Virus record (IMG/VR): IMGVR_UViG_3300050343_000265
Span: 19,954 to 83,953 of that record
Origin: a virus
Direction: 5' to 3' (one strand)
Length of the DNA stretch: 64,000 bases
A model generated the notes under the pieces. It was given only the letters and a program-made list of their open reading frames with translations, searched no databases and was not told where the DNA came from. The translations under genes were made by a program, and so were the position numbers. Positions 47,049-64,000 of the stretch are shown piece after piece. Each line of letters starts with the position of its first letter. Positions within the stretch are counted from its first letter, which is position 1.

Positions 47049-47111
47049 AGTAAAAAGTAAGTGAATGCCATATAGGCAATAGGAAATAAAGGACCCATTA
47101 GGGTCCGTATA

Positions 47112-47276
47112 TCAGCGGTTTCGAGCAGGATCTAAAGCCATTAGCCGATTGGCTTGTGCTTGACAACGATCAGCTACTAGTTGATAAACCTCTTGTGGGT
47201 TATCAGCTTCGTGCTCTCGAATTAATTGCAGCAGGAAATGCATGAACAGTCCTGTTAGTTCGCTTGTATTTTTCAT
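47112..47276 (-). CDS. Small hypothetical protein
   Basis: Manual: MKNTSELTGLFMHFLLQL... Confidence 0.45.
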   Translation of the reverse strand: MKNTSELTGLFMHFLLQLIREHEADNPQEVYQLVADRCQAQANRLMALDPARNR

Positions 47277-47279
47277 TCG

Positions 47280-47447
47280 TCAGGCAGGTGCTAGTTCTCC
47301 AGCCATCTCAGCCAACTTGGCTGTAGCGCGGCATTGAAGAACGATCCAGGCAAGCTCACCTGATAGTTGATTTGTGTCGCAGAAATATTCGATTGTGTCG
47401 TCTATCAAACCTTCCAGCTCGGACAGCTGGTCGCGTGACAATTGCAT
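47280..47447 (-). CDS. Small cyanophage-type protein
   Basis: Manual: MQLSRDQLSELEGLIDDTIEYFCDTNQLSGELAW... Confidence 0.55.
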   Translation of the reverse strand: MQLSRDQLSELEGLIDDTIEYFCDTNQLSGELAWIVLQCRATAKLAEMAGELAPA

Positions 47448-47544
47448 TCATGAGAGATATAAGTGTTCAAGCCCATCGCCGGGCACAACATAAATATAGC
47501 GCCCATTAGGGCGCATATGCTTGGTAACTAATACTTATTTAATA

Positions 47545-47886
47545 TCAACGACGACGACGTGCAGCCTTACGATCCGCTTTACGCTTTTCAGCTGCATTGT
47601 ACTGTGCGCTTCCAACTATGTTTCTTTGTGTCACGCGCTTAGATGTCGAACCGTAGGTTTTGCCACCTCGCTTCATGGATTTGATTTTTCCATCAGCACC
47701 TCTACGTGTTGCTGATGTAACTCCACCAGAGGCATTACGTTGACTAGAACGTGTTGAACCGTCGGCATTAGTACGCTTACGTGAAGTAGTACCGTCCCTG
47801 TTAGCTCGTTGCTTAATCGTGGCACCCTTCTTAGTTTTCCTAGTAGCGATTTGCCCCCGGCGTCCAGAGTAAGTAGTAGTAGGCAT
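47545..47886 (-). CDS. Highly basic Arg/Lys/Thr protein
   Basis: Composition; TACAAT box upstream. Confidence 0.6.
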   Translation of the reverse strand: MPTTTYSGRRGQIATRKTKKGATIKQRANRDGTTSRKRTNADGSTRSSQRNASGGVTSATRRGADGKIKSMKRGGKTYGSTSKRVTQRNIVGSAQYNAAEKRKADRKAARRRR

Positions 47887-47935
47887 TAGTTTAAATACAA
47901 TTCTTTTTAAATTGTATCAACTAAATATTGCTTAA

Positions 47936-48127
47936 TTACCAGAGCCCTGGGATCATTTGTCCAGTTACTGCATAACTACCAAGTGCTGCGATAATACCCA
48001 GCATTGCCAAACGGCCATTCAGTTTTTCAGCTTTTGTGTTGTGGTCCATGGTGATCTCCATTACTTGCATTTGTGGTTCTTTGGCGTAGATATTTGTTCT
48101 TCCGCCGTCTTCAATTATTGTAGTCAT
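47936..48127 (-). CDS. hli: High-light-inducible protein
   Basis: AEKLNGRLAMLG and TGQMIPGLW motifs. Confidence 0.95.
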   Translation of the reverse strand: MTTIIEDGGRTNIYAKEPQMQVMEITMDHNTKAEKLNGRLAMLGIIAALGSYAVTGQMIPGLW

Positions 48128-48329
48128 TTCTGTAATGTTTTGTTAAGCATCTTAAGTATAACCTCGAATTCTTGGTAACGAGGGTTGCGAATAGAGATAT
48201 TATTTTGCATGTAGATAACTACAGCAGCGCGAACATCGTTTAATTGTTCTTGAGTCAAGTCAATCATGATATTAAAAAAGGCCCTCGTAATGAGAGCCTA
48301 GCAAATAAATAGTTCGTAAAACAATATTG

Positions 48330-48563
48330 TCAGTGAATGCCATACCGCTTATTGTAATTCTTTTCCTTACGGCGTTCAATATCATTAACTCTTTGGGCAC
48401 GAGCAGCATTATTAGCTTGTGCTCTTTTTCCAGTACCAGAGTTAGCACTGCCTTTATTCAGTTTAGTAATTTTTTTATTGGCTGCTGTTGTGGCCCTGGT
48501 GGGATTTTTTTTAGCAACAGATTTGCGTTGAGTGCTGGTACGTCCGCCACGTCCTGTAGCCAT
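48330..48563 (-). CDS. Highly basic small protein
   Basis: Arg/Lys-rich ORF. Confidence 0.55.
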   Translation of the reverse strand: MATGRGGRTSTQRKSVAKKNPTRATTAANKKITKLNKGSANSGTGKRAQANNAARAQRVNDIERRKEKNYNKRYGIH

Positions 48564-48615
48564 GATAAATATATCGAATTACATATAGTATATCAATAAA
48601 ATTCTAAAAAGTGTG

Positions 48616-48828
48616 TCAATCATTTGACAGTACTAGAAAGAACTTTGTTTGATCTGTTGGTGAGTTTTCATAACACGAAATGTCACCGTATTCTTTATGT
48701 TCTTTGTATCCAACCATCTTTCCTTTTGTATTCATGAGGGCTGGCATGAATGCAATTAAAAGGAATACAGATGGAGCACCAATAAGTAGTGCGCCGCCGA
48801 TTACGTAGTAGGTGAGAAGTTCAATCAT
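48616..48828 (-). CDS. Small membrane protein of picocyanobacterial type
   Basis: MIELLTYYVI...FMPAL.NTKG.MVGYK. Confidence 0.6.
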   Translation of the reverse strand: MIELLTYYVIGGALLIGAPSVFLLIAFMPALMNTKGKMVGYKEHKEYGDISCYENSPTDQTKFFLVLSND

Positions 48829-49252
48829 TATTTATACTTTGGTTATGTTTGCTGTGCTTAAGCACATACTCAGTAAGACGTTGTAAGTGCTTTGGACTAT
48901 CTTCGACAAGTCCTAATACGATGTTGCAATCCTTGCAGAGTAGTTCTCTTACAGTTCCAGTTACATGGTCGTGATCCACACACCATTGGTTGTGCTTTCC
49001 TCTAGGTTCTGAAGTACCGCAGCAGGCGCACTTGGAGCCTTGAGCAAGCACCATCCTATTGAAAGTAGCAAGAGTGATGCCGTAATTACGCTGATAGTGT
49101 AAATCTCTTGCTCGTTCTGGGTCTCGGGTAGCCTTAACCCTTGTTTTAGTACACTCTTTACATTCATATTTATAACCGTTAGGTCGTGAGTTGTCTACAT
49201 AAAACTCTGATATTTCTTTTATTGTTTTACACTTGCAACATTTTCGTTCCAT
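48821..49252 (-). CDS. Endonuclease VII-motif homing endonuclease (F-CphI-like)
   Basis: CxxC pairs, YGITL..F..M...Q...C, VDHDHVTG.VR.LLC..CN; directly downstream of psbA. Confidence 0.8.
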   Translation of the reverse strand: MERKCCKCKTIKEISEFYVDNSRPNGYKYECKECTKTRVKATRDPERARDLHYQRNYGITLATFNRMVLAQGSKCACCGTSEPRGKHNQWCVDHDHVTGTVRELLCKDCNIVLGLVEDSPKHLQRLTEYVLKHSKHNQSINND

Positions 49253-49302
49253 AAAAAAGGCCCACACTTGTGAGCCTATCTAAACTAATTGACGCTTGTG
49301 GA

Positions 49303-50390
<1,088 letters not shown>

Positions 50391-50710
50391 TTAATTAATG
50401 CGGTGTTTTGTTTATTTGGGTTAGTACTCGCGTGTGGTTAACGCTACTTAACAATCATACCTTGAATGTTAAGGAATGAACACAGTATATATACTTAAAG
50501 GTCGAGATCTTGGGTTCTAATTTTATAGTCTCGCTGGAAATCTCGTGATTGCTTACGTTCTTTAAGCTCGTGTTCGAGATGTGAGGAAAATCCTTTTGTA
50601 GTTGGATGCTTAATAGTCTTTGACATTCTTTTCTCCTATTTAGTTTTAGTTAGGAGCAGGGAATGCTCCCAACTATGTTTAATATATCAGCGAATCACAC
50701 ACTGGTGAGA

Positions 50711-51056
50711 TTAAATATAAGTGAAGCTTACATAATCTACACCTGGGTGCGTAAGTCCGATTGCTAATGCTGCTCCGTACGATAAGTCAAGCTCGCGAGC
50801 ACCAATAAAGGGGCCACGATCGTTGATACGTACATCCACGCATCCTTGGTAACAAACACGTAATTTTGTACCGAAAGGTAGCGTCTTATGTGCGGCGGTA
50901 TGTCCGTACATATTGTAAGTTTCGCCGTTGGCTGTGGTCCTGCCGTGGAAATAGCTACCGTACCAGGAAGAAAGCATGGAGCCTCCTGCCTGGACGGATG
51001 TGCCGAGGCTGAAGATTGCAGCAGCAGCGATAGCAGCTAATAGATTTAATAAACAT
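50711..51056 (-). CDS. RlpA-like lytic transglycosylase (signal-peptide part offset by one indel)
   Basis: SWYG..FHGR.TANGE...AAHKTLPFGT...INDRGPF...LDLS. Confidence 0.85.
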
Positions 51057-51120
51057 TTAGTTCATAACATTAAACTAAACCTAGAGTTAACAAATAGGGA
51101 GCACAATTAAGTGCTCCCAA

Positions 51121-52113
51121 TTATATATCTAGCACGACAGGTTCCACTAAGGTCACGTGCGTATAGCAAAGGCTTTGCGATTTGCTGATCTGAGCACCAA
51201 TACCGAATGTGCCACGTGCAAACTGAGCACGAGTTTTGGCAGCAGTCTGATTACGAGTGCTTGTTTCTATTTGGGTAATAGCATTAAAGCCATTCCAAAG
51301 AGAGAATGAGGCATACTCTGAGCCATAGCCAGCACGGAATGCTTGCTCTAGCTTCTGACGTTTACGTAGGACATCACCTTCGTCTACGTTATATACCTCA
51401 TCAACGAACTCGTTGAACTGAGACATATTCATAGCTGTACGTGAGAACTCACGCATCAGGTCACATTCATGAGCAAAGTCTTGACGCGATACATCAATGC
51501 TGTTGATAAGAGCATCGAAGTTTGCGTTGGCAGTGCCCTTGTGAGTGATGCTTGAAGAAGCACCAGTGTCACGCAAGGCAGCAGTCAGTGTGTTCTGACA
51601 GACAACACGGATGTTGGTGAACTTTGCACCACAACCGGTCTTGCCGTCATGACCTAAGTAGCCGACGATGCGTCGTTTGACTGTGTCGCCAGGGACGATG
51701 TCCGTCTCCGCACCACGGAGTGTGGCGGTAAAGCAGACTTTGGCCCCGTCAGATAGAACGATGACGCAGTCCATGTCTGCCTCTTCGCGGATAAACTCCG
51801 CCATGCGAAGCAGCGATTCGTTTTGAACGATTTCGTACTGCTTGGTAACGACACCGAGCAAAGCTTGGGTGTCAGTACGGACAACTCCGAAGACACCTGC
51901 TGGTTCGTATGAAATACGTCCTGGCAAGTATCCATCGGTAGTTCCGTTGTCGTATTGACGGGGAACTTGAAGCTCTCGCTTCTCGACAGTAAATAGTGCG
52001 TCTGCTGTTTCAAACGCCTCTCGCGCTGGAAGCGTGCCAGGGGTGACAACCCCCTGCCCGTGCCATGCACGTTCGCCATTGCCGAGCCAGCCAGATGTGA
52101 AATTTGCGGACAT
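51121..52113 (-). CDS. DUF932-family phage/plasmid protein
   Basis: ERAWHGQG, VRTDT..LGVV...Y..VQN, GHDG, IRVVCQNTL; 3' end possibly frameshifted. Confidence 0.8.
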   Translation of the reverse strand: MSANFTSGWLGNGERAWHGQGVVTPGTLPAREAFETADALFTVEKRELQVPRQYDNGTTDGYLPGRISYEPAGVFGVVRTDTQALLGVVTKQYEIVQNESLLRMAEFIREEADMDCVIVLSDGAKVCFTATLRGAETDIVPGDTVKRRIVGYLGHDGKTGCGAKFTNIRVVCQNTLTAALRDTGASSSITHKGTANANFDALINSIDVSRQDFAHECDLMREFSRTAMNMSQFNEFVDEVYNVDEGDVLRKRQKLEQAFRAGYGSEYASFSLWNGFNAITQIETSTRNQTAAKTRAQFARGTFGIGAQISKSQSLCYTHVTLVEPVVLDI

Positions 52114-52284
52114 TTTGATGTAGCCATGTATTGGACACAAGTTGTAAAAGGCCCCGTTAGGGGTCCTCCAAAGTATGGCGATTAGTTTTTAAGAAACAAT
52201 GTGGTTAAATATACATTTCCTGAGTTACTTATGTCTGCATGTTTATCAGCCTAAGATTTGTTAAGTTAACAATCAAAAAAAAAA

Positions 52285-52602
52285 TTAAGCCTGAAGATCA
52301 ATGAACTGAGATATCTTCTCAGACATTTCCCAACCACCTTTATATTTCCCTGTTTTGCAAGCAACTAGATGCTCACAGGCAAAACATGGATGTCCATAAC
52401 ATTCTTTAGTAAGCCGTTTGTCAGCTTGGATACGTCTGAATGTAAATAATGAATTGATATATCCACAGTTTTCTGAATGTTTGTGCATAAAACAGCGAGT
52501 GGCTTCATACATCACTTCAGACATTGTCATGCCCCAAGCATTCGCGTAGTCCTTTAATACTGCGTGACACGGGTCAGGCATTTGAACTTGAATTTTTTTC
52601 AT
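52285..52602 (-). CDS. RHH-like + Cys-rich protein, paralogue 1
   Basis: KKIQVQM...VLKDYA..WGMTMSE.MYEA; CYG.PC..C.H..AC.TG.YK. Confidence 0.65.
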   Translation of the reverse strand: MKKIQVQMPDPCHAVLKDYANAWGMTMSEVMYEATRCFMHKHSENCGYINSLFTFRRIQADKRLTKECYGHPCFACEHLVACKTGKYKGGWEMSEKISQFIDLQA

Positions 52603-52946
52603 GTCTGACAGGTGTCACAGGAACAATTATTTGGTTGTTCTTTAAGCAAGTGCTTATATTCATCAGCAATTTCCCAGTCGTTTTTGTATAGACCAGTTCT
52701 GCACGCAAGTTGATGCTTGCAGCACCGGCACAGATATCCGTAGCAAGGCTTTGCAGAACGCTTATCTGGGCTGATCCCTTGTTTTCGAAGTATTCCATCT
52801 GCTAACTCGCAGATTTGAGAAGAGGCGTGTATGTGCTGTTTCGCAGCCTCATACATCAGCTCTCCCATGGTCATGCCCCAATAAGCGCAGTACTCTTTGA
52901 GGACAGCAGCAAATTGTTCGTCAACCTTGACGTCGATCCGCTGCAT
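52599..52946 (-). CDS. RHH-like + Cys-rich protein, paralogue 2
   Basis: QRIDVKV...VLKEYC..WGMTMGE.MYEA; CYG..C..C.H..AC.TG.YK. Confidence 0.65.
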   Translation of the reverse strand: MQRIDVKVDEQFAAVLKEYCAYWGMTMGELMYEAAKQHIHASSQICELADGILRKQGISPDKRSAKPCYGYLCRCCKHQLACRTGLYKNDWEIADEYKHLLKEQPNNCSCDTCQT

Positions 52947-53154
52947 AAATGCGAATATGAGAATGATTCCTTCTTGAACATAGGGGCAATGAGCCCGATC
53001 GGACACGATTTGAGCAAATTAGTTCTCGGTAAAGTTTTATTAAGTATTCATTATTAACATAATTCTGTAGCAAGGGTACAACCGTGGTTTTTTGCTTGTA
53101 TTCAGCTGCAAGGGAAGGGAAGTGCTCATAGAGTACCCCAATAGAATTATGGGA

Positions 53155-53258
53155 AAACTACGTTTGCTACGCTTCTCCCTTATATATCTCTTTTTTAATG
53201 CACCTCTCCTCTATTTATTTAATGGTTATATAGAGAATTAGCGTAGTTAGCGTAGCTT
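53155..53258. repeat. Inverted 9-bp-period iterons flanking an AT-rich core (copy B)
   Basis: CTAC at 53158/53167; GTAG at 53243/53252; 19-nt identity with 21549-21567. Confidence 0.7.
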
Positions 53259-53370
53259 TTTATATAGCAGATACTAAAAAACCCAGTACTTGACTGGGCT
53301 TTGGATGCTACGCAATTGTTGGCGTAAATTGAAAAACGTCTTTGACGCCGCCTGTATTTGTAGCCAAATT

Positions 53371-54009
53371 TTATTGAGCAAACTCATTAACGTCGGTAGT
53401 AGCTCGATAAGGATTTGCTTCTGCAGAATCGTATGCCATATCTTGAAAACTACTCTTATAAGGAGATAGATTTCCGCCAGCGCCGTAGCCTTCTTCCCAA
53501 TTAGCAAGAATATCTTCTTGCTTACGGAGTTCAGGTGACTTTTCATATGGTTCGTCAGTTAGATCAGGTGTGATAGAAGTATTAGTTTGTTCGTCATCGT
53601 TAGTAGACAAAGCATCAATTTTATCTTTTAGTAAACGTTGAGCATCGTTAACTAAGTTGTTTGTGACACCAGTAACATCTTTAATGGAAGAGTATTTACC
53701 TCCATTACCTGCTTTCTTGTGAAGCTTGTGAGCGCCACGTTGATAGGCAACATAGTCAGATAGTTTTCCGTCGCCTTCTATATCGTCCATATGCTGAGCA
53801 CTGGTGCGATAGTCAAAGTCATTACGGATTCGATCTTCGACAGCTGCTCTTAAGGCATCATCGTCAAAGTCTTCGTAACGACTGCCACCATGTGCGTCGT
53901 TGGTGAATTGATCTTGATCAATTCCATATGAGTCTGCCAACCCACGAATGTAATTACGCTGGCCCATAAGGCCTAATTTGTCGAACTTCTGTGGCCTGTC
54001 TCTTCCCAT
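53371..54009 (-). CDS. Hypothetical protein
   Basis: 212 aa ORF; TAAAAT box upstream. Confidence 0.65.
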   Translation of the reverse strand: MGRDRPQKFDKLGLMGQRNYIRGLADSYGIDQDQFTNDAHGGSRYEDFDDDALRAAVEDRIRNDFDYRTSAQHMDDIEGDGKLSDYVAYQRGAHKLHKKAGNGGKYSSIKDVTGVTNNLVNDAQRLLKDKIDALSTNDDEQTNTSITPDLTDEPYEKSPELRKQEDILANWEEGYGAGGNLSPYKSSFQDMAYDSAEANPYRATTDVNEFAQ

Positions 54010-54033
54010 GACACAATTAAATAGCTTTTAAAT

Positions 54034-54231
54034 CTATTTTACTTGGTCTGAAGTTGACTTTTTAGGTTTGTAGTAAAGAGGCTCGTCAAGATAATCGCAG
54101 ACAAGTTCTGCTAACTCCCAATAGTGAGTAAACCAGTCGGCTATTAGTCCTGAGTGGGGTAGTGCGTGATATCGATATTCGACATCATCTATTTCGTCAA
54201 GAATTTTGTCGCGTAGTTCCTGCTTGTTCAT
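54034..54231 (-). CDS. Hypothetical protein
   Basis: ORF track. Confidence 0.5.
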   Translation of the reverse strand: MNKQELRDKILDEIDDVEYRYHALPHSGLIADWFTHYWELAELVCDYLDEPLYYKPKKSTSDQVK

Positions 54232-54362
54232 TCATAGAGTCTAAGCATAAATAGTAATTAGTGCTGTCCATTAGCCCTAGTTACTTATACAAATTGCATA
54301 CAATTTATAAAGGAGAAGTTACTTATGTAAAACGTAAATAACACATAGGTATATAGATATGA

Positions 54363-55382
54363 GTGCCATCCGGAAAACCAAGACTTAGATTACATCAGCA
54401 AGCTGGCAGAGAATTTTCCGCTGCGAGTAATTATGAATTAATCAACAAAGCTAAGGCAATATTAGAAAATGAGCTGCAAGGCTATCGGGATGTATCCATT
54501 AATCCTAACGGTCGTCTGCATATAAGTTCAAAAGCAAATGCTCTTGATGAGAGCGAGTCCCAACAAATACTTTCACTATTGCTAGGAGCACATGCTGAAA
54601 CAGAAGCGCTAAAAGGACGTAGTATTCGGCCTAATGCCCCTGTTACGCAAGCTGAGCTTGAAGATAGAGCTGTTCTAGAGGAAATAATAGGTAGAGGGTT
54701 AATATCTGCAGAGGTAATAAATAATTTTGCAGCCAAGGGTTTTAGAGATCCTTCTAAAGTTTCTACAGATGATTTAAGTCAGAAGTTTCAAGATGACCTA
54801 TTTCAAATTGGGGCTGGGTATGAACCTGGAACAGGAGCTGCTTATACGTTGCAGCATAAACAATCAGGACATTTATTAGATGATAATTTATATCCTGAGT
54901 TAGGACATTCTATTGATAATATTGAACAACAATCAAGAAAAGTAAATCAGGTCACGGCTGATTCAGCAAAAGGCAGATCAGTAATTAATCCAAAATATAA
55001 ATCGATCGTAGATCAACGAAAAGCGGCATTAAATATGATTCGTGATCAATATCAGAAAGGGTATAAAGATACTGTTTATAATGATGATGGTGATTCAGAC
55101 ATTTACGGTAGCGCTTTGGATGAATTAATTAACGAAATTAGAATGGCTGACCCTGAAGTGTTAGCTGGTTATAACAAGTTAAAACAGAGTGCATTACAAG
55201 AAATTGATGCCAAGCGTGATGCTCAAGCTGCAGGTGCAGTGGTTGGAGAGAAGCCAACAGTAATCAATGCTGGTGAAGGATCACGTGTCTATGTTGAAGG
55301 CAGTAACGGCAATGGAAACGGACATAAAGTCGATAAAATTAAAGCAGCGATGAAGAATGGAAATGGGAACGGTAAACATTAA
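54363..55382 (+). CDS. Hypothetical protein with possible HNH-like motif
   Basis: SGHLL...YPELGHSIDNI.....VN. Confidence 0.55.
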   Translation: MPSGKPRLRLHQQAGREFSAASNYELINKAKAILENELQGYRDVSINPNGRLHISSKANALDESESQQILSLLLGAHAETEALKGRSIRPNAPVTQAELEDRAVLEEIIGRGLISAEVINNFAAKGFRDPSKVSTDDLSQKFQDDLFQIGAGYEPGTGAAYTLQHKQSGHLLDDNLYPELGHSIDNIEQQSRKVNQVTADSAKGRSVINPKYKSIVDQRKAALNMIRDQYQKGYKDTVYNDDGDSDIYGSALDELINEIRMADPEVLAGYNKLKQSALQEIDAKRDAQAAGAVVGEKPTVINAGEGSRVYVEGSNGNGNGHKVDKIKAAMKNGNGNGKH

Positions 55383-55840: not shown

Positions 55841-55900
55841 GTGTTCCGTATAGGGGACACAAAGAACTAAACCGCCCATTAGGGCGGAAGGTTGTTTAAA

Positions 55901-55972
55901 CGACCCATGCGAGATTTGAACTCGCGATACCACCGTGACAGGGTGGCGTGATAACCGCTTCACTAATGGGTC
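55901..55972 (-). tRNA. tRNA-Asp(GTC), CCA not encoded
   Basis: GACCCAT/ATGGGTC acceptor, GTGA/TCAC D arm, CCACC-CTGTCAC-GGTGG anticodon arm, GCGAG-TTCAAAT-CTCGC T arm. Confidence 0.95.
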
Positions 55973-56011
55973 TAGTAGGGGCATGGGGTTTAAGACCCCA
56001 GTACCTAGTAA

Positions 56012-56494
56012 TCACTCTTGGAAGCAATAAGTAACCATCCAATCCATTACATGGCTGGCTGAACGTAGTTCCATCCAGAATGCTTCTAGTTCGAGGCGTT
56101 TGTGATCACCTCGGTAGCCCTGGAGTGTTGCGTAGTAATGAGGAGCCATTTCTTGCAACTCACGCAAGACACGGGGTACATGTGAATCTGCAATTACAGG
56201 ACCTGCTTGACAGGCTTGCATGACATGAGTGGCTTCATGGGAAACCACTTCCCAGACAGCGTCTGCATCTTGCATATCGACTGCGTTCTTACAGATCGCC
56301 ATTAAGTCAATGCTGTTCTGTGGGTCATAGCTGTAGTAACCCATTACTCCTTCTTGAGAACAATTTTGAATTGAGACGGTAGTACCAGTCTGTTCTACAA
56401 GTTCTACAAGTGAACTCACATCTTGCCAGGATGTTGCACTTGCAGGCAATGCAAGAGCTAGTCCAGCAAGGACAGAAAATATTTGTTTGATCAT
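56012..56494 (-). CDS. Secreted zinc metallopeptidase-like protein
   Basis: Signal peptide; HEATH, downstream ELEA. Confidence 0.7.
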   Translation of the reverse strand: MIKQIFSVLAGLALALPASATSWQDVSSLVELVEQTGTTVSIQNCSQEGVMGYYSYDPQNSIDLMAICKNAVDMQDADAVWEVVSHEATHVMQACQAGPVIADSHVPRVLRELQEMAPHYYATLQGYRGDHKRLELEAFWMELRSASHVMDWMVTYCFQE

Positions 56495-56628
56495 TTTATT
56501 AATTCGCTTTAATGGAGTGTGGGTATAAGGATTCCAAAAATCATGCCTAGGCAGTACATAGCCAGGCCGTAAACAACAGTCGTTTCCTTCATATAAGACT
56601 ATACTCTACGTTATTAATTTAGCGTGAT

Positions 56629-57153
56629 TTATAGTCCATAGGGAAATACTTGTTCAGGATGTGCAGCCCAATATTCATCATTTTTTCTGAGATGCACGGC
56701 GTCGATGCCTTGCATGTGAGCGCCTTGAATGTTGTAAGGGGAGTCATCGAATAGTGTCCCAACTTGGCGGTAGTCTTCTTGTAGTTTTTGAAGCATTGCT
56801 TGCTTAGCAACACCAGATGGTTCCCCACCAGTGCTCAGCATGATTTGATCAAACGGTACGTTGTGCCGTTGAAGCCATTCGATAGTCTCTTGAAGACGTT
56901 CAGCAGGACGTGCTGTAGCGATAGCAATACGGTCGCCCTTGCTTGCAAGTAATTGCGCAAGTTCTACGACTGCTTCGTCAGCAGGAAAGTCCCGTGCAGC
57001 GTCAAAGAACTGATCTTTAGTCAGACCAGTGTTGTCAAAGCCTTCAGGCTTACGAGTAAGAGTGTCATCTACATCAAAAGCATGAACGATTGCCCGTTTA
57101 TCAGCAGGGGTTAGTTCGGCACCCTTAAAAAGATCACCGGCAAACTTTCTCAT
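56629..57153 (-). CDS. HAD-family phosphatase (PNKP phosphatase-like)
   Basis: FDVDDTL, ATARP, K, FDDS. Confidence 0.8.
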   Translation of the reverse strand: MRKFAGDLFKGAELTPADKRAIVHAFDVDDTLTRKPEGFDNTGLTKDQFFDAARDFPADEAVVELAQLLASKGDRIAIATARPAERLQETIEWLQRHNVPFDQIMLSTGGEPSGVAKQAMLQKLQEDYRQVGTLFDDSPYNIQGAHMQGIDAVHLRKNDEYWAAHPEQVFPYGL

Positions 57154-57224
57154 ATCTCTATTCGAGTAGATATTATTTATTGTAGTAATGTTGATAAAAT
57201 TAATAGATATAAGTCATATGTAAT

Positions 57225-58388
57225 ATGTCAAGAATAAGTCTTGCTAAACAGTTAGGAGGAGATCGTTTAGAAGCAGCTGCAGATGCACTACTTAACGACT
57301 TGACGGGGTCTACCCGTTATGGCAAGACAAGGGAAATGGATTATGTATTTCCTGGAGATCGCCTGACTGCAGATAATGTTGATGAGAGCATCACCCGTCT
57401 TGGCGCACGTAATCCTGCACAACTCACGTATGGGCTTGATGGCAGCATCGTGGGAATTGAGGGAGGAGACGTTATACGCAACAAGAAAGGAGGGATCAAC
57501 ATTGATCAAGTGCCGTCCCCCTATGGGAGGGACTACGTCAAGTACAGCCCTTCAGTAGTCGATAGCACTACAAGTGAACTAGTAGAAGCTCAGTTGTATC
57601 CAGAGCGCTTTACAGGCGCTACAGGCCAGCTAGGAGCTGCAAGAGATATGGGCTTGGCCCACAGGTACAACGACTACGAGGGATACAGGGCAATTAATGA
57701 CCGTATGGAGGTCACACCGGAAGCATTGGCGCGGTTTGGTGCAGTAGTCACCAAAGGAAAGGCAGATAAGCCTGTCGCGGCAGCAATGTCAGGTGGAGGT
57801 GCCATCCTCGGAAGCCGTGGAGACACCGTGTTGATTCCAGGGACAGACAAGGTATTCAGTTCATTACCCAGTGATGAGAAGGCTGCTTATTTAGGTGAGA
57901 GGGGAGATGTCTTTCTTAATCAGTGGCTACAGCAAAAGGGTGGTTCGATGGGAACAGCACAGTCAGTGATATTCCCTCCTGGGAGACCTAGCCATATGGA
58001 CCACATCCAATCGCTGTCAAGCAGCATTGATGCGAAAGGTCCGGCAGGGTGGGGTTATAGCGATGATCCAACTAACTTCAGCTATTTAGACGCTGACTAC
58101 AACGTCAATACAAAGCTGAACTACGACTTACAGACGGTGCATCAGCTCGGTCGTTTAGCCGACACCATGCGTCAAGACGGATATGGAGCACGGCTACCTA
58201 AGAACCTCACTGATAAGGAGTTAGGCGATCCAGACCGTAAGCGTCTGTCTCAGAATGAGGCCATTGGTGAGTTGGTCATGAAGACCATTCCACCTACGGC
58301 AGACACAAGGGAGCTGGAGTACGCCTTAGGGATGCTTCGTCAAGCAGAGCGTGAGCAAATGCAGTGGACTGGTGGGTTAGCTAGCTGA
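57225..58388 (+). CDS. Protein with HNH-like motif
   Basis: HMDHIQSLS...DDPTNFSYL...YNVNTK; GATAAAAT box upstream. Confidence 0.55.
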   Translation: MSRISLAKQLGGDRLEAAADALLNDLTGSTRYGKTREMDYVFPGDRLTADNVDESITRLGARNPAQLTYGLDGSIVGIEGGDVIRNKKGGINIDQVPSPYGRDYVKYSPSVVDSTTSELVEAQLYPERFTGATGQLGAARDMGLAHRYNDYEGYRAINDRMEVTPEALARFGAVVTKGKADKPVAAAMSGGGAILGSRGDTVLIPGTDKVFSSLPSDEKAAYLGERGDVFLNQWLQQKGGSMGTAQSVIFPPGRPSHMDHIQSLSSSIDAKGPAGWGYSDDPTNFSYLDADYNVNTKLNYDLQTVHQLGRLADTMRQDGYGARLPKNLTDKELGDPDRKRLSQNEAIGELVMKTIPPTADTRELEYALGMLRQAEREQMQWTGGLAS

Positions 58389-58593
58389 ACTCATCCATCC
58401 CTTGCATAAATTGGAGGGTAGGGCCGTATGCGGCCTGAATCTCGCGTGTTAGTGCTTTGAGCTTTAAAGCGTTGTGCACAGAACGAACAGTAGATATTGC
58501 AGATATGTCGCGAGCTTTGGCAGCAGAATTTACAGTTTGTTGAATAGAAGCTAGATCAGATAAACGTTCTCTATTGAAATTCATGATCGTCAA
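58381..58593 (-). CDS. Small protein, possible paralogue of next
   Basis: Shares R...AAYG.T..F. Confidence 0.5.
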   Translation of the reverse strand: MTIMNFNRERLSDLASIQQTVNSAAKARDISAISTVRSVHNALKLKALTREIQAAYGPTLQFMQGMDEFS

Positions 58594-58784
58594 ATTGATG
58601 GAAAGTCAGCAGCAGTAAACGGAACAGTTTGTCCGTATGCAGCTGCCATGTCACGTTGGGTCTGACGAGCAATGATTCGTTGAGCTTCGTCTTGACGTGC
58701 TTTCATAAGTTGCTCATTTCTCAGCATTGTTTGTGACATTGCTTGGAAAATACGATTGTTTCCAGCAAAGCGTTCAATATTCAT
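58590..58784 (-). CDS. Small protein
   Basis: ORF track; TAGAAT box upstream. Confidence 0.55.
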   Translation of the reverse strand: MNIERFAGNNRIFQAMSQTMLRNEQLMKARQDEAQRIIARQTQRDMAAAYGQTVPFTAADFPSI

Positions 58785-58809
58785 AGCTAAAACACACAGT
58801 ATTTATATT

Positions 58810-59028
58810 CTAAAGTTTTCCCTCAACTACAGAATTATGTGGAATTGATGTATATCCGTCAAATTCACCCTTGAGGACAGGGATGTGGATATTTTCTGTG
58901 ACCCATCGGCAGTCGTCTTCTGTTGGTCCAGTGACCATGCGGTCGCCAGACTTAAGCACAGAAGTATAAAGGCCAAACCTTGACTTTTGGATTGAAAACT
59001 CATATGTCTCCTTAGTTTTTCTAGGCAT
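58810..59028 (-). CDS. Hypothetical protein
   Basis: KSRFGLYTS, VEGKL motifs of cyanophage type. Confidence 0.6.
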   Translation of the reverse strand: MPRKTKETYEFSIQKSRFGLYTSVLKSGDRMVTGPTEDDCRWVTENIHIPVLKGEFDGYTSIPHNSVVEGKL

Positions 59029-59102
59029 TTGTATATTTAAGCTCTGTCCAGTTTAGTTAGAAACGTAAAAAAGTGGCCCTCATTAGAGGACCACATTGAT
59101 CA

Positions 59103-59528
59103 TTAAGCAACAGGTTCGAGAGCAGGAGCTTTGTCGATAACGACGTCACCTGCGTCATCTTTCTTGTAAGCACCGTAGCCACCACTCAACACAACAGCGT
59201 TGGTGAGTTTGAGCTCAGGGCGACGACGATACTCTGTTTTACCTGTCTTTTTGTCGAAGTAGGTTTCAGAGAAACCAGACAGATGACCGGTGACAGTAAT
59301 CGTACGTCCTGTCCAATCGCGATTGGATTTGATGAAGGTGTCAAGCAAACCGTTGTTGCTGTTGATCTTGACGGCAATAGCTTGTCCATCACTGACAAGA
59401 TCAGAAAGAACGGTCATGGAGAGAAACTCTCCATACTGACCGACAACGAGCTCTGCGAAGGACACTCGACCAGTGATGGTGAGAGCGTTGAAGTCCGCAA
59501 AGGTCTTCTTGTCGTTGGAAGTTGTCAT
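59103..59528 (-). CDS. OB-fold SSB-like protein
   Basis: NALTITGRV...GRTITVTGHL...Y.DK.TG. Confidence 0.6.
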   Translation of the reverse strand: MTTSNDKKTFADFNALTITGRVSFAELVVGQYGEFLSMTVLSDLVSDGQAIAVKINSNNGLLDTFIKSNRDWTGRTITVTGHLSGFSETYFDKKTGKTEYRRRPELKLTNAVVLSGGYGAYKKDDAGDVVIDKAPALEPVA

Positions 59529-59588
59529 GAGAAAAAACTCATATAAAGAACACGAGAAAAAAGAGGACCCATTAGGGTCCGTAGGTTG

Positions 59589-59981
59589 TTACTCACAACA
59601 AGGTGCGGGTATGACAGTGAAATCGTCATCGCACACACTGATTGTCGTCAGGATGTTCATGACTGCCTGTAATTTACCGGCATCTTTTGCCCATCCGACT
59701 GCTACAACTGTGTCATTGCTTTCAGCAAGACGTTCTGCTGCTTTTGTGTGCCATTCCATAAGGCTATGGATGATCTCACAGGCAGCAAGCTTGTGCACAA
59801 TCGGATGATTGATCTCGTCAGTCATATCAGAGAGCTTGTCACGGACAACTTCTGAGACTTCGTCTGCAGTACGTCCGTCATAGGGAGCTGCTTCTTTATC
59901 TACAGGCTCCACTTCTTGTTGAGCATTGACCATCAGATCCGCAAGATCTTCGAAGGAAATGCTGTCAGGAGTTGCGCTCAT
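59589..59981 (-). CDS. Hypothetical acidic protein
   Basis: ORF track; hairpin element upstream. Confidence 0.6.
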   Translation of the reverse strand: MSATPDSISFEDLADLMVNAQQEVEPVDKEAAPYDGRTADEVSEVVRDKLSDMTDEINHPIVHKLAACEIIHSLMEWHTKAAERLAESNDTVVAVGWAKDAGKLQAVMNILTTISVCDDDFTVIPAPCCE

Positions 59982-60170
59982 ATTTTATGCGTAAAGAACA
60001 TTAGAAACTTAAGGACCCATTAGGGTCCAAAGTTCTACCTGTGAGCTACTTGCTTAGCGATACGGATGTATTGTTTGCGTTTGTTAGCAAGATAATTAGC
60101 CACAATGATGTTCATGGTCTCCATGTGTAGTACATGAGTAAAAAGAGACCCCATTAGGGGCCTCGTGTTC

Positions 60171-60317
60171 TTAGTGATGAGGTCGGCGGCATAGCCACTC
60201 ATCTGATTCCATCATCGCTTCACGGATGATGTATGCACGACGTGCCGCTTCTTCGGAAAGCTCTTGATATTCAAGAGTACCGGGGCAGTCATGTGGATCC
60301 AGAGGTAATTCAGTCAT
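60171..60317 (-). CDS. Small hypothetical protein
   Basis: Manual: MTELPLDPHDCPG...; hairpin element upstream. Confidence 0.4.
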   Translation of the reverse strand: MTELPLDPHDCPGTLEYQELSEEAARRAYIIREAMMESDEWLCRRPHH

Positions 60318-60377
60318 ACCTATATTGTTATGGACAATGGAGTCAAAACCCCCTATTAGGGGGGTCTTATGTGTTAC

Positions 60378-60590
60378 TCAGACGAGCGCAGCACAGAAGT
60401 GTGCATGCTCAGCGTCAGAAATGAAATCACCGATTGCTTCGTTGACAAGAGGTACAGAACCATCATTTAGATGGGTGTACTCCTCTTCTTTCGTGAGGTA
60501 GCTGAAGGCGTCTTCGTTCTGAGCAACTACAAGACTGATGCCAGGTACCAGTGTGTCACTGATGATCTGGAAGTCGTAAGTAGTCGCCAT
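60378..60590 (-). CDS. Hypothetical protein (MATTYDFQII...)
   Basis: ATG 60590 after hairpin element; track ORF 60378-60893 looks like an artefactual fusion. Confidence 0.55.
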   Translation of the reverse strand: MATTYDFQIISDTLVPGISLVVAQNEDAFSYLTKEEEYTHLNDGSVPLVNEAIGDFISDAEHAHFCAALV

Positions 60591-60639
60591 AAAGACAGAA
60601 TGATGAAGAACATCAATTCTTAGAGGACCCATTAGGGTC

Positions 60640-60893
60640 CTAGGCTGTCCATTCTTCGGAAGCTTCGGCAACAAATCGTGCTCTATTTGGAGCTCGTTGA
60701 TTGTTTCCTTAAGCTTGTCGGCAGCACGTTCATATGAGAGTAATCTATTTTGTAGGACAGCGATTTCATCCGCTGCTTGTTTCTGTCTGAGCTCTGCATA
60801 TTTGGCATCTGAGATGACATAGACATCTCCGCCAAAGGGGATTTGAGCCATATCGTTTATTAAATGGAAGGGTGAGAGGTTATAGAAGGACAT
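60640..60893 (-). CDS. Coiled-coil protein (one-base deletion near 3' end)
   Basis: DVYVISD..YAEL...EI; ends EASEEWTA* in the shifted frame. Confidence 0.45.
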
Positions 60894-60921
60894 CCTGCTT
60901 CTTTATATATACCGGACTTCT

Positions 60922-61188
60922 CTAAGATAGACTGTCCAGGTCTCTACGTTGGTGTGTAGAACCGTCCTGGTTCTTGGTAATTTCCCGAACCATATCGTCG
61001 TAGAAGTCGTCGCCAAACTGTCGTCGTACCTTCTTCTCTAGGTCTACTCCACCAAGTACAGATACATCGTTATAGATGATCTGATAAAGGTAGGATAGTG
61101 CCTTCTGGTGAGACATACTTTCGACTACTGCGGAAGCGTATTCTTCCTTAGCTCTCATGAGCTCTCGTCCTGTTAATGCAGTCATCAC
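60922..61188 (-). CDS. Hypothetical protein
   Basis: ORF track. Confidence 0.55.
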   Translation of the reverse strand: MMTALTGRELMRAKEEYASAVVESMSHQKALSYLYQIIYNDVSVLGGVDLEKKVRRQFGDDFYDDMVREITKNQDGSTHQRRDLDSLS

Positions 61189-61310
61189 TGATATCGTCCG
61201 TTAGATGTACGGTTGCGCTTGAAGCTATAAGTTGCAACTGTAGCTGTAGCAAACAGTCCCAACATACCAATGATAGCCAGGATGATTGTAGATGAGTCGT
61301 ATGTAATCAT
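61185..61310 (-). CDS. Small single-TM protein
   Basis: Manual: MITYDSSTIILAIIGMLGLFATATVATYSFKRNR... Confidence 0.5.
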   Translation of the reverse strand: MITYDSSTIILAIIGMLGLFATATVATYSFKRNRTSNGRYQ

Positions 61311-61712
61311 TAGATGATGATATAAAGAACATGTATAAATAGACCACCCATTAGGGTGGATATTCTTATGGTGTAACCACTGCTATATCTTCCTTAGGGA
61401 AGATGAATGGCAGTAGAACCATAGGGAATGCTAGCACTTCCATGTGGAGACCCACGGTAATTGCTGCATAGATTGGTAGTAGAACTTTCATAGTCTGTGT
61501 ATAGATAACACAGAAGAAAAGAGAGCTTGTTAATGCTCTAGTTCATGGCAGGAGGAGAGAATCTCCACTGCTTCTTTATTAGTGATTGTTCCTTGTTGTG
61601 TGGCATATGCCAACTCCACTGCCACCTCAGTGCACATAAGTGAACTATTAGGTGGTACGGCAGTGAACAATAGGGTAGTTATAAGTATCGTCTTAATCAT
61701 TTCTTAATAAGC

Positions 61713-62270
61713 CTAAACGTCCTCGTCGATAATGTTGCCAAGGGAGTTGCCAAGTACGGCAGCAGTAATAGGTGCGGCAAGGTAGGAAAGATATCCACCT
61801 GCCAACCGTCCTTGCTGTCCTAACCGTGCAGGACGTCCCGCATCTTCCATAAGAGCAAGTGCATTCTTACTGGCAAGAGCTTCATCAAGAAGAACAGGGG
61901 AGGCTAATGCAATAGTTCCGAGCATAGCTTCGTCAAGATCGTCATCGCCAGGGGTCATAGCAGCAGCTGCAATAGGAGTAATTCCAGTAGCAGCACCCAA
62001 GGCGACAGCGAGCTTAGGATTGCTAGAAACTAAGTCACGAAGGCGTCGAATCTTATCCCCAACAGGGGAGTTAAGAGAGGTCTGATGTCCTAATTCGTGA
62101 GCAAGATAAATCTCGTCAGCATTAGGGTTGTATTGAATAGTGCTAGGCAGACGTTGTCCTTTAGCAATATCCATTTGTCCATCAGGACCAGGTGCATACC
62201 TTGAACCATGGGAGGCATACCGCATTGCATTCAATGCATCCAATAATTCAGGATCATTAGATTCAATCAT
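61713..62270 (-). CDS. Zinc metallopeptidase (YugP-like); may join 62309-62491 through an indel
   Basis: AHELGH...EALASKNAL...YLSYLAA. Confidence 0.65.
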   Translation of the reverse strand: MIESNDPELLDALNAMRYASHGSRYAPGPDGQMDIAKGQRLPSTIQYNPNADEIYLAHELGHQTSLNSPVGDKIRRLRDLVSSNPKLAVALGAATGITPIAAAAMTPGDDDLDEAMLGTIALASPVLLDEALASKNALALMEDAGRPARLGQQGRLAGGYLSYLAAPITAAVLGNSLGNIIDEDV

Positions 62271-62558
62271 CTCCCTCAGTTTTGCACCAGTGGGAGCTTC
62301 ATTAGCGTTTAAACCAAGACTTGAATTGGATTAGAACCAGCAGCTTTCTCTGCCCGTTCACCATATGCTTTAAGCAGACTGTCACGTGCACCAGGTCCAG
62401 CAGCACGTTTGTGAGGCTTGGCCCGCATCAAGTCTCGTTGAGCAACAGCACCGGGAATTTGTGCAGCTAGTAATGTAAGTAAAGGATGCACGGTATGATA
62501 TTAATGCAGTAATTCAATTGTAGAAGAAAACAAAAACCCCCCGTAAGGGGGGGGAGAC

Positions 62559-62723
62559 TCAGAGCTCAGGGTCACAGAGATCGGCAGGCCACTGAACGTA
62601 GACCTGGGCTGGAGTACCGCAAGAGCGGTAGAACTCAGCCATGTTCTGTGCTTCTTCATAAGAAGAGAACTCTTGAGTCCGAATGTCATCCGTATAAGGA
62701 GGACGGTATTGAACAAAGTTCAT
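62559..62723 (-). CDS. Small putative early protein
   Basis: MNFVQYRPPY...FSSYEEAQNMAEFYRSCG. Confidence 0.6.
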   Translation of the reverse strand: MNFVQYRPPYTDDIRTQEFSSYEEAQNMAEFYRSCGTPAQVYVQWPADLCDPEL

Positions 62724-62781
62724 AATAATGTAAATGAGAAAGAACACAGTGAAATAAACCCCGCGTTAGCGGGGTAATATG

Positions 62782-62955
62782 TCAGAAGTGAAGGTTGTTA
62801 ATTTGCTCTGTGGAGGGGACGTAGTCAAGACGAACGTCGTCCCAGTCTTCGAAAGACTTAGCAAATGACTTTGCTTCTTGATACGAGTCGAAGCATTCAC
62901 GAACAGCATCAAAGCTGTCGTTACCGCAGATCTCGTAATGAGTGACTGTGTACAT
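62782..62955 (-). CDS. Small putative early protein
   Basis: Manual: MYTVTHYEICGNDSFDAVRECFDSYQEAKSFA... Confidence 0.55.
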   Translation of the reverse strand: MYTVTHYEICGNDSFDAVRECFDSYQEAKSFAKSFEDWDDVRLDYVPSTEQINNLHF

Positions 62956-63009
62956 CGTGAAGATGTGAAGAACACAGTGAAATAAACCCCCCGTAAGGGG
63001 GGAGTGAGC

Positions 63010-63333
63010 TCAAGCCGCAGCGGCGGGAGCGGGAGCAGAAGCTTCAGCAGCAGGAGCAACCTGTGCTTTGTCATCTGACTTTGCAGTGAAAGGGTTGATA
63101 GACAAGCCCTTTGATTGACGATCACCTGCGTAGATCAGTCCAGCCGAGATGCCGGAGGCAGCAAGAACTTGAGCAGGAAGCACAGCGGTAACGAGTGCAA
63201 CACCTGCGACACCGGTACCAGCGGCTACAAGCACGCCAGCGGTTGTCAGAGTGTTCTTGTCGAGCATGCCTTTAGATCCAGCAAGAAGTGCAGGACCGTC
63301 AGCTTGATCGACGAGGAAGTCAAAGTTTGACAT
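63010..63333 (-). CDS. Two-TM Ala-rich membrane protein
   Basis: ORF track; biased codon usage; hairpin element upstream. Confidence 0.65.
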   Translation of the reverse strand: MSNFDFLVDQADGPALLAGSKGMLDKNTLTTAGVLVAAGTGVAGVALVTAVLPAQVLAASGISAGLIYAGDRQSKGLSINPFTAKSDDKAQVAPAAEASAPAPAAAA

Positions 63334-63411
63334 GTTAGGAATGAAATGTAGAACATGAATAAATAAAGAGCGCGTTAGCGCTCAGCAGTTGTATGTACTG
63401 GAAAGCTGTGT

Positions 63412-63579
63412 CTAGAAAGGGATGTCGTCGAACTCAGCTTTCTCCATAGGCTGATCAAGGAAGAGTGGATACTCTTCATCGGGAGCATTACAGTCAAAGT
63501 TGTAGACAACGCCAACGTAGTTGCCGTCCTCATTTATGTACGTGTAACCGGAGTTACCGAACTGTTGAAGGAAGATCAT
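63412..63579 (-). CDS. 55-aa peptide ending in EFDDIPF (SSB-tail-like)
   Basis: Manual translation; hairpin element upstream. Confidence 0.6.
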   Translation of the reverse strand: MIFLQQFGNSGYTYINEDGNYVGVVYNFDCNAPDEEYPLFLDQPMEKAEFDDIPF

Positions 63580-64000
63580 GATTTAATTATGTAAAGAACA
63601 TACATAATTAGAGAGCGCCTTAGCGCTCAATAACCCTCACGAGTTCCCTTAGTGGTAGGTGTGGTAGGTTCACACAACACAGAGGCCGAGAGACATCTAA
63701 TGTTACGCACAAGTTCTAACGTAAGTTATGAACGACAGTTATCCAACTGAAGTAACTGGTGCTTACAAATGTGAACGCAAGACGAGAACGAACACAACAC
63801 AATAGTTAACATTAAGTGTTGAACTAAAGATATTGTGTGAGTTCTACTTGCGTGAACAGAAGAATAAACGTGAGCTCAATTGCGTAAGCAATTACGAGCG
63901 AACTACAGTAGTAATGAGCGAGCGAAGCGAGCGGGTGAAACCCTTGTGCTCTACTAGTTTATTTTTTTTGTTCCACCGGCCGATCGGGAACAGAGGGTAT

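Follow-up and report, generated by a model that had tools for sequence, protein, structure and literature searches.

The 64,000-nt stretch analysed here (the window) comprises bases 19,954–83,953 of a complete 83,953-bp phage record of IMG/VR, IMGVR_UViG_3300050343_000265. On its coding (−) strand, between 47,074 and 63,628, it carries 15–16 copies of one element, made of a GC-rich stem of 6 bp, a loop of 3–4 nt, 12 T-rich nucleotides, and a TGYYC box followed by an ATG after 14–19 nt. The evidence is good that this element delimits gene cassettes and that it carries a signal for expression. The reading we prefer, with a probability of about 0.4, is that it is the gene-end/gene-start junction of a cassette array, with RNA initiation at the box.

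Distribution of the Element

The genome has two arms. The plus-strand arm holds the structural genes, and the minus-strand arm starts at the right copy of an exact 304-bp direct terminal repeat with ~17 kb of small open reading frames (ORFs), followed by the replication genes. Copies of the element are restricted to this 17-kb block (Table 1). All the copies listed in the initial annotation are present on the − strand, the one at 61522–39 being doubtful. Ten hairpins are perfect (6-bp stem, 4-nt loop, GC of at least 4). Perfect hairpins with a TGYYC at +12 occur nine times on the − strand and never on the + strand, and 100 block shuffles give a mean of 0.000 and a maximum of 0. A covariance model (R1) built from 91 distinct copies was run on the complete 84-kb genome; its 18 hits are without exception on the − strand, and 17 of them fall within 47,065–63,634. 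The element has no family match in Rfam, where tRNA alone scores above threshold within 46,500–64,000.

Four loci deserve mention. The first copy lies directly after the terminal repeat, has no ORF upstream, and has an interrupted U tract. Element 13 precedes the gene of a DUF932 protein, with an in-frame ATG 19 nt after the box, and is found at the same position in all relatives examined. In the variant copy the box is shifted by one base and a second hairpin starts at position 30 (position 0 being the first stem base, here and in the following); the same form is found in 15 relatives. Finally, the hairpin at 62537–52, which lacks the box, is an ordinary terminator-plus-promoter arrangement.

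Table 1. Copies of the element and other features (window coordinates unless stated; "perfect" marks the ten perfect hairpins)
Feature	Position	Strand	Hairpin	Stem-loop-stem	Spacer, box	ATG	Score	Remarks
Element 1	63596-63628	-	63613-63628, perfect	GAGCGC-taag-GCGCTC	12 nt, TGTTC	63579	38.3 bits	-12.3 kcal/mol
Element 2	63351-63383	-	63368-63383, perfect	GAGCGC-taac-GCGCTC	12 nt, TGTTC	63333	40.2 bits	
Element 3	62970-63002	-	62987-63002, perfect	CCCCCC-ttac-GGGGGG	12 nt, TGTTC	62955	44.5 bits	
Element 4	62742-62774	-	62759-62774, perfect	CCCCGC-taac-GCGGGG	12 nt, TGTTC		45.8 bits	
Element 5	61327-61359	-	61344-61359, perfect	CCACCC-taat-GGGTGG	12 nt, TGTTC	61310	44.8 bits	
Element 6	60608-60640	-	60625-60640, perfect	GGACCC-taat-GGGTCC	12 nt, TGTTC		33.7 bits	no U tract (tctaagaattga)
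Element 7	60332-60363	-	60349-60363	CCCCCT-aat-AGGGGG	12 nt, TGTCC		23.7 bits	3-nt loop
Element 8	60130-60164	-	60145-60164		12 nt, TGTAC		23.5 bits	8-bp stem, one G.U; inner 6 bp (60147-60162) keep the spacing
Element 9	59996-60028	-	60013-60028, perfect	GGACCC-taat-GGGTCC	12 nt, TGTTC	59981	43.2 bits	
Element 10	59548-59580	-	59565-59580, perfect	GGACCC-taat-GGGTCC	12 nt, TGTTC	59528	45.6 bits	
Element 11	55855-55887	-	55872-55887, perfect	CCGCCC-taat-GGGCGG	12 nt, TGTCC		42 bits	begins 13 nt after tRNA-Asp gene
Element 12, weak	55565-55599	-	55580-55599		12 nt, TGATC		17.3 bits, E 0.16	8-bp stem, one G.U; inner 6 bp keep the spacing
Element 13	52133-52165	-	52150-52165	GACCCC-taac-GGGGCC	12 nt, TGTCC		29.4 bits	one A.C mismatch
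Variant element	47482-47514	-	47499-47514					canonical -10 hexamer TATATT directly after hairpin, 6 nt, purine at position 28
Element 15	47074-47106	-	47091-47106, perfect	GGACCC-taat-GGGTCC	12 nt, TGCCT		32.5 bits	
Doubtful copy	61506-61539	-	61522-61539		TGTTA		13.7 bits, E 0.94	5-bp stem, 8-nt loop
Contrast hairpin without box	62537-62552	-	62537-62552					same hairpin type, long U tract, canonical -10-like TACAAT 14 nt on
tRNA-Asp(GTC) gene	55901-55972	-					65.4 bits	within cassette block
Terminal repeat, right copy	63697-64000	.						exact repeat of genome 1-304; element block begins 69 nt inward
TAGAAT(A) motif	genome 610, 8311, 17435, 17765, 23600, 28956, 29980, 32710, 33116, 41535	+						sequence motif
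TAGAAT(A) motif	window 58812, 48606	-						sequence motif

Anatomy

Pairing is conserved rather than sequence, as the initial annotation had proposed. All six stem pairs are changed on both sides, with 174 doubly changed cells versus 45 in shuffles (in an alignment chosen for perfect pairing). G.U pairs are nearly absent from the stems (4 in ~650 pairs), which are perfectly Watson-Crick on both strands. The asymmetry between G.U and A.C pairs was considered as a test of RNA versus DNA structure and dropped, as imperfect stems are too few (3–4 G.T versus 1 A.C). Folded as RNA, the hairpins have energies of −10.7 to −16.5 kcal/mol. The positions preceding the stem (−10 to −6) are A-rich, and in several copies this flank pairs with the T tract. 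The loop between the stem arms reads T-A-(A/T)-(C/T). After the stem, T16 and T18 are conserved at 97% and 95%; position 17 is T, C, or G (A in only 4 copies out of 106); A or C stands at 19, T is frequent at 20–22, and 27 is a purine. The U tract is thereby interrupted (T-n-T-A/C-T-T-T), and in several copies it is missing, as in tctaagaattga.

The distance from the end of the stem to the box shows the sharp peak that a ruler-type signal would have: 81 copies have 12 nt, 23 have 11 (mostly those with 7-bp stems), and 6 have 13, and there is no peak on the other strand. The 12 nt are also kept in the lineage with 3-nt loops. In copies picked regardless of the box, T28, G29, and C32 are conserved at 74–80%. 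The box was originally given as TGTYC; its place at +12 stands, and the consensus is better written TGYYC, since 146 copies picked without reference to the box include 44 TGTTC, 23 TGTCC, 18 TGCCC, and 7 TGCCT. It is directly followed by TTTA. From the start of the box to the ATG there are 19–24 nt, and the apparent box-ATG distances of 5–7 nt correspond to out-of-frame ATGs within a TAYATG motif. Shine-Dalgarno sequences are generally absent in this phage, hence their absence at the element is not specific to it. The gene upstream of psbA (~50626) has, unlike most genes of the phage, a clear Shine-Dalgarno sequence, GGAGAA.

Second hairpins are found downstream, starting at position 28–30 in 40 of 50 cases regardless of the box sequence. 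The box itself is base-paired in the second hairpin in ~25 copies, including TGCCC and TGCCT copies, where it forms the 5′ arm; such is element 15 (TGCC-tatat-GGCA). In this subclass (TGCC(C)-loop-GGGCA; 47074–47106 and orthologues) a conserved TTCACTTAC motif comes next, and the gene that follows, at 46395–47048, codes for 217 aa. A different arrangement is found at five related loci (L027 at 250, L029 at 7412, L032 at 9950, L041 at 150, and L024 at 9979, all of them before the DUF932 gene). There a second hairpin occupies the position of the box and is followed by a second TGTTC/TGTTG and TATAYATG, the box being in effect duplicated around an inserted hairpin.

Terminator-like sites number 39 versus 12.7 expected. 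The ordinary terminators of the phage have 8–9-bp stems and T5–6 runs, and each of the three long ones has one G.U pair.

Conservation among Relatives and Absence Elsewhere

Relatives of the DUF932 protein of the block (61–93% identity) are encoded at 24 IMG/VR loci, and the same element is present in them. At these loci the box stands at +12 after 111 of 210 coding-strand hairpins, versus 2 of 210 on the other strand. The scan of relatives with a covariance model that the initial annotation had suggested gave 12–23 hits in each of five complete relatives (78–82 kb), 86 of 86 on one strand and in one block of 17–20 kb. A broader pattern scan of IMG/VR returned the same lineage and four further contigs. 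The GGACCCTAATGGGTCC hairpin alone, in other marine phages, is a plain terminator without the box. The earlier view that the element is more than a plain terminator thus agrees with three observations: no gene lies upstream of the first copy, its U tract is broken up, and spacing and box are conserved in ~24 related contigs.

The phage encodes a sigma factor with 58–63% identity to those of group 2 in Prochlorococcus and marine Synechococcus, and the host of the phage is therefore taken to be a marine picocyanobacterium. The covariance model finds no copy of the element in five host genomes. There is none either in S-EIVl, a phage of polar freshwater Synechococcus that is the nearest cultured one (54% identity in TerL); hence the lineage with the element is without a laboratory model. 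S-EIVl has other repeated intergenic hairpins: at 43480 and 43774 (−) of KJ410740.1 (L140), between small minus-strand genes, one finds gtcaaagcgggt, a 7-bp stem, tgcaaac, the second arm, and cag.

At the orthologous site before the DUF932 gene, stems are wholly different between lineages and pairing is maintained. Loops and stems are homogenised within a genome and differ between lineages, the loop being, according to the lineage, TAAT, TAAC, TATC, TCTC, or the 3-nt TCC. Co-evolution of the loop with a phage protein would lead to such lineage specificity. The element might then be an operator for an RNA-binding protein that reads loop and box, acting either as a RegA-like translational repressor of the entire class of genes or as an N/boxB-like antiterminator, and the phage specificity of the signal and a box within ribosome reach of the ATG would fit. 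However, recombination between copies can also produce uniform loops within a genome, the box is paired in the copies with a second hairpin, and no candidate protein was found. The box, moreover, is like the E. coli rrn boxA and unlike the boxA-like leader sequence of the hosts (GCACTCTTAAGAACCC). We consider such an operator very unlikely. A boxA/nut reading was itself rejected as a poor match, the leaders of five rrn operons from picocyanobacteria carrying GCACTCT(T/C)(AA)GAACCC and not TGTTCTTTA. Pairing of the box with 16S rRNA was also rejected: the one 7-nt complement (AAGAACA near 655) is about what chance would give, and the TGTCC and TGCCC variants do not fit.

Cassette Shuffling

The window and a relative that is 92–97% identical to it (L005) have the same cassettes in the first 2.3 kb after the repeat, in permuted order. 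Their homology blocks begin at the box (in window orientation, 401 with 616 of L005 and 1026 with 385). Four metatranscriptome runs of one sample contain a ~95% identical relative as assembled contigs, in which variant joints lie at elements (62552, 62774, 63002/3, 63357, and 63612). Since homology blocks begin at the box and contig joints lie at elements, the mobile unit is the box, leader, and ORF, with hairpin and spacer as a shared linker. Some contigs span the elements across 59031–61413, and others break at the repeated hairpins. Being assembled contigs, these data show neither transcript ends nor transcription itself. The genes of the block were labelled early in the initial annotation, and may be so, from their position only.

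The coincidence of cassette boundaries with elements could suggest a dedicated site-specific recombination site similar to integron attC, acting as folded single-stranded DNA and with no role in expression. A structure-defined hairpin with a conserved GTT-containing box at a fixed distance would suit such a site, and some copies have an outer inverted repeat, GAACAC...GTGTTC. Yet only ~12–21 of 95 copies have this repeat, and they belong to a single sub-lineage; the shuffling requires no more than homologous recombination among the repeated hairpins of 16 nt; and the tight box-ATG distance and the place before the first gene indicate expression. A recombination site of this kind is thus highly improbable. 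In attC sites each copy would have paired outer R″/R′ boxes around the inner stem; here, outer complements of at least 6 nt are present in 12 of 95 copies, versus 5.5 in permutations, in one sub-lineage only. In L023, L035, L038, and L039 the first five elements after the repeat are extended upstream as (TCAATTCAATTAC)TGAACAC(A), whose GAACAC could pair with the complementary GTGTTC of the box and so enclose the hairpin in an outer stem. As a general feature of the element, this outer stem was rejected because of its restriction to those copies and that sub-lineage.

Promoters, Sigma Factor, and Polymerases

The absence of a conserved sigma70 −10 box, already noted in the initial annotation, is borne out: TAnnnT has no constant place with respect to the hairpin, the box, or the ATG. 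Sigma70-like sites in the region number 22 versus 31 expected. Between box and ATG, TAnnnT is lacking in 36 of 57 copies, and no hexamer is aligned on the ATG. A promoter for leaderless mRNAs, with the TAYAT after the box as −10, was rejected on these two counts. A −10 hexamer at positions 18–23 was rejected as well, because only 9 of the 48 copies with A19 have T at position 23. The common hexamer after the stem is TnTAnT with a non-A second base; in this class T, T, A, and T of TATAAT are found at the equivalents of −12, −10, −9, and −7, and A is avoided at the equivalent of −11. A TAnnnT ~7 nt before the presumed start is found solely at the 47499–47514 locus and its orthologues in 15 relatives (16 genomes), as TATATT or TATAGT at positions 16–21, with a purine at position 28. 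At this locus the 12 nt are thus a −10 hexamer, which the hairpin directly adjoins, and a 6-nt discriminator. Upstream of the first copy, the terminal repeat holds no convincing or conserved promoter.

Elsewhere in the genome, a −10-type motif, TAGAAT(A), lies 22–44 nt upstream of the ATGs of structural and other genes, including the sigma factor, without an evident −35. It is probably the ordinary promoter class of the phage, and the leaders that it implies are ~15–30 nt long.

The sigma factor (312 aa) scores above the threshold set by NCBIfam for cyanobacterial RpoD/SigA proteins. Its gene, at 17,806–18,744 (+) of the genome and outside the window, is of the full group-2 type (regions 1.2, 2, 3, and 4), lies in the structural arm between the portal and major head genes, and has its own TAGAAT box upstream. 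Region 2 is identical to that of the host sigma factors, and the protein is therefore expected to read ordinary −10 boxes. It is the only sigma factor in the genome, no second one having been found.

The initial annotation favoured a hairpin (cruciform) promoter in DNA for a phage-encoded RNA polymerase (RNAP), and one may add a virion-carried RNAP as in coliphage N4. Points that would suit such a promoter are its definition by structure, stems that are perfectly Watson-Crick on both strands, a block that begins at the genome end, and a signal missing from hosts. Template-strand loops are mostly G-N-N-A or G-N-A, and loops of these types form stable DNA hairpins. The complete genome argues against the idea. 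A T7/N4-type RNAP domain (PF00940) gave no hit, in a search whose controls were also silent, and a multisubunit (double-psi-barrel) domain (PF00623) gave none with positive controls. No ORF exceeds 882 aa, the largest being tail proteins, and the largest without family match have 586–597 aa, shorter than any single-subunit RNAP known to us. The geometry differs too, the centre of the loop being ~20 nt before the box versus ~12 nt before +1 in N4. Hence, a promoter of this sort has very little probability.

A Proposed Gene-End/Gene-Start Junction

In the reading that we prefer, the element would be a portable junction in a lineage of marine picocyanobacterial phages relying on the host RNAP. 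The GC hairpin, with its A-rich 5′ flank and interrupted T tract, would be a weak intrinsic terminator, or an RNA 3′-end protector, for the upstream cassette, and the 12 nt and the TGYYC box would be the start of the downstream one. The 12 nt resemble a promoter core without −35, T-n-T-A-n-T (TATAAT minus A−11), with a 6-nt discriminator, and this geometry places the T-G of the box at −1/+1. The downstream mRNA would begin at the box, ~20 nt before the ATG, by a non-canonical initiation that would need the adjoining hairpin or a phage factor. With a start at G29, T28 and G29 make a pyrimidine −1/purine +1 pair, and the leader of ~20 nt is like those implied by the TAGAAT motifs. The boundary of the second hairpins at 28–30 would be explained by an RNA 5′ end followed by a 5′-terminal protective hairpin. 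Since the first copy after the terminal repeat has no ORF upstream, the hairpin belongs also to the start signal. As it is common to all copies, it also supplies crossover points for the gain, loss, and reordering of the units made of box, leader, and ORF.

Several points weigh against this reading. A −10-like hexamer without A−11 should be nearly inactive with a factor of the sigma70 family, the sole sigma of the phage has the host's region 2, and no factor able to read the box or the hairpin was identified. Since the element is missing from host genomes, one would not obviously expect a signal read by the host alone. The copy with a canonical hexamer represents one orthologous locus and thus a single independent case. 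The interrupted T tract fits also an NusG-type TTNTTT pause motif or an AU-rich RNase E site. Finally, the RNA-library contigs across five elements are compatible with read-through, or with DNA carry-over, and the RNA 5′ end at the box is a prediction from sequence, the RNA evidence consisting of assembled contigs.

A bolder version, which we think unlikely, is that at every junction between cassettes a nucleic-acid structure, in place of a −10 box with A−11, makes the host RNAP start, or stop and then start again. Melting would be driven not by sigma but by the hairpin next to an AT-rich segment of 12 bp, alone or with a small phage protein. This would be, in a DNA phage, a gene-end/gene-start logic of transcription like that of the junction signals of negative-strand RNA viruses.

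The initial annotation offered RNA processing or terminator-restart as an alternative, and both are live rivals. For processing, the main rival, which we hold possible but doubtful, a long polycistronic RNA of the right arm would come from few promoters, and the hairpin-box units would be modules of processing and stability. An endonuclease, either the host RNase E or a phage enzyme, would cut in or just after the 12-nt AU-rich linker, leaving the hairpin as 3′ protector of the upstream RNA and a downstream mRNA whose 5′ end is ~20 nt before the ATG. In favour of this hypothesis, the element is devoid of a promoter motif; its first copy precedes the first gene, like the first processing site of T7; another comes right after a tRNA gene, whose product has to be excised from a longer RNA; the second hairpins at 28–30 delimit a fixed single-stranded window between two hairpins; and five elements are spanned by contigs of RNA libraries. 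Cyanobacterial RNase E prefers single-stranded RNA with A at −4/−3 and U at +2/+3 (PMC8682795), and the linker UUUAUUUnUU matches this preference. On the other hand, RNase E is low in sequence specificity, so that the near-invariant T-G...C, T16, and T18 are left unexplained, and pairing of the box in ~25 copies is awkward for a site recognised as a single strand. The terminal repeat provides no convincing promoter for the long RNA, the hosts do not use the element, and its stems nearly lack the G.U pair that each of the three long ordinary terminators has. Initiation is favoured over processing because of the copy with a canonical hexamer, the promoter-like dimensions, and a box that may be base-paired.

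The signal might also be addressed to an elongating polymerase. A nascent hairpin 12–13 nt behind the active site and a T-rich non-template tract would stall the host RNAP at U28/G29, or the RNAP would terminate in the T tract and the same enzyme molecule would start again at the box. The distance of 12–13 nt from hairpin to T-G is near the 11–12 nt of hairpin-dependent pauses, T-G matches the pause rule (pyrimidine at −1 and G at +1), T17-T18-N-T-T-T matches the NusG motif TTNTTT, and recognition by the polymerase would be indifferent to the later pairing of the box in a second hairpin. However, it is hard to see what a pause 15–20 nt ahead of an ATG still to be transcribed would serve; where the pause consensus has G at −10, the element has A or C (position 19); and promoterless restart by a terminated bacterial RNAP is not known as a mechanism of gene expression. 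The copy without an upstream transcription unit is also left unexplained, unless there is a promoter in the terminal repeat. We therefore find this explanation rather improbable.

Should transcription start at the box, the element would illustrate how a phage that lacks a polymerase drives a class of genes from sites without A−11, a base that to our knowledge every promoter of the sigma70 family needs. If the box is a cut site, we would have a ruler-type signal of RNA processing in cyanobacteria, where the rules of mRNA processing are poorly known. Under either reading, the element is a small (~33 nt) natural module that would combine an insulator and a start. It is also a compact and searchable signature of the lineage, with 12–23 copies per genome, and a precise delimiter of mobile cassettes.

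The Phage and Its Lineage

The genome codes for a major head protein, tail fibres, a terminase, a portal-like virion protein, a primase-helicase, a split family-A DNA polymerase, a ribonucleotide reductase, and PsbA. It has no nucleotide match in GenBank. By shared features, and without direct comparison of sequences, the lineage appears to be the widespread uncultured group of marine cyanophages described by Flores-Uribe et al. (bioRxiv 10.1101/325100), who do not discuss promoters, terminators, or hairpins.

The psbA (D1) gene lies inside the cassette block, at 49443–50390 (−) of the window. In the same block, a protein of 185 aa (61713–62270, −) has a zinc-peptidase-like HELGH (HExxH) motif followed by hydrophobic Gly/Ala-rich segments, and has no Pfam hit. 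The terminal repeat opens with a block common to relatives (CCGGTGGAACAAAAAAAATA; window 63697–64000 and the starts of loci L035, L038, and L039), and in the window phage it also contains several GTTC...GAAC inverted repeats. Packaging and end recognition are possibilities for these sequences.

Comparison with Known Systems

The element has in common with intrinsic terminators, including NusG-assisted ones with interrupted U tracts, an A-rich flank, a GC hairpin (−11 to −16 kcal/mol), and, just past the stem, T as first and third nucleotide. It differs in having a box at +12, a fixed distance to the ATG, one copy with no upstream gene, and several copies whose U tract is broken up or absent. 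The RNase III sites of the T7 early RNA are similarly placed, in a block of small genes beside a terminal repeat with a site before the first gene, and in both cases a hairpin would remain at mRNA 3′ ends. T7 sites are long irregular duplexes of ~20 bp or more that are cut within the stem, whereas the stem of 6 bp is here too short for RNase III and the conserved box is outside it. The lambda nut and rrn boxB-boxA signals also consist of a hairpin and then a U-rich box, and the box TGTTCTTTA is one base from the E. coli rrn boxA. In contrast, the host rrn leaders carry GCACTCTTAAGAACCC, and the box is here present in ~16 copies per genome and often paired.

The hairpin promoters of N4, three in number, have a 5–7-bp stem and a 3-nt loop centred ~12 nt upstream of +1. 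Those of its virion RNAP resemble the element in being short GC hairpins that are defined by structure, at a fixed distance from the presumed start, with genes at the genome end. Here there are ~16 copies instead of three, loops are mostly of 4 nt, the hairpin is ~8 nt further from the presumed start, and no virion or phage RNAP gene was found.

The closest known analogue is the promoter-early stem-loop (PeSL) cassette of T4-type phages (Arbiol et al. 2010, PMC2839356; Comeau et al. 2014, PMC4122927). PeSLs also are repeated stem-loops with start signals that lie between small ORFan genes in a plastic region, their stem sequence is lineage-specific, and close relatives differ by insertions, deletions, and reorderings whose breakpoints lie at them (PMC2839356, PMC4122927). 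In PeSLs, however, the stem-loop is followed by a sigma70 promoter (−35, 17 nt, −10), whereas here the hairpin is separated from the ATG by 12 + 5 + 14–19 nt with neither a −35 nor an A-containing −10, and the hairpin-box spacing is constant to the nucleotide.

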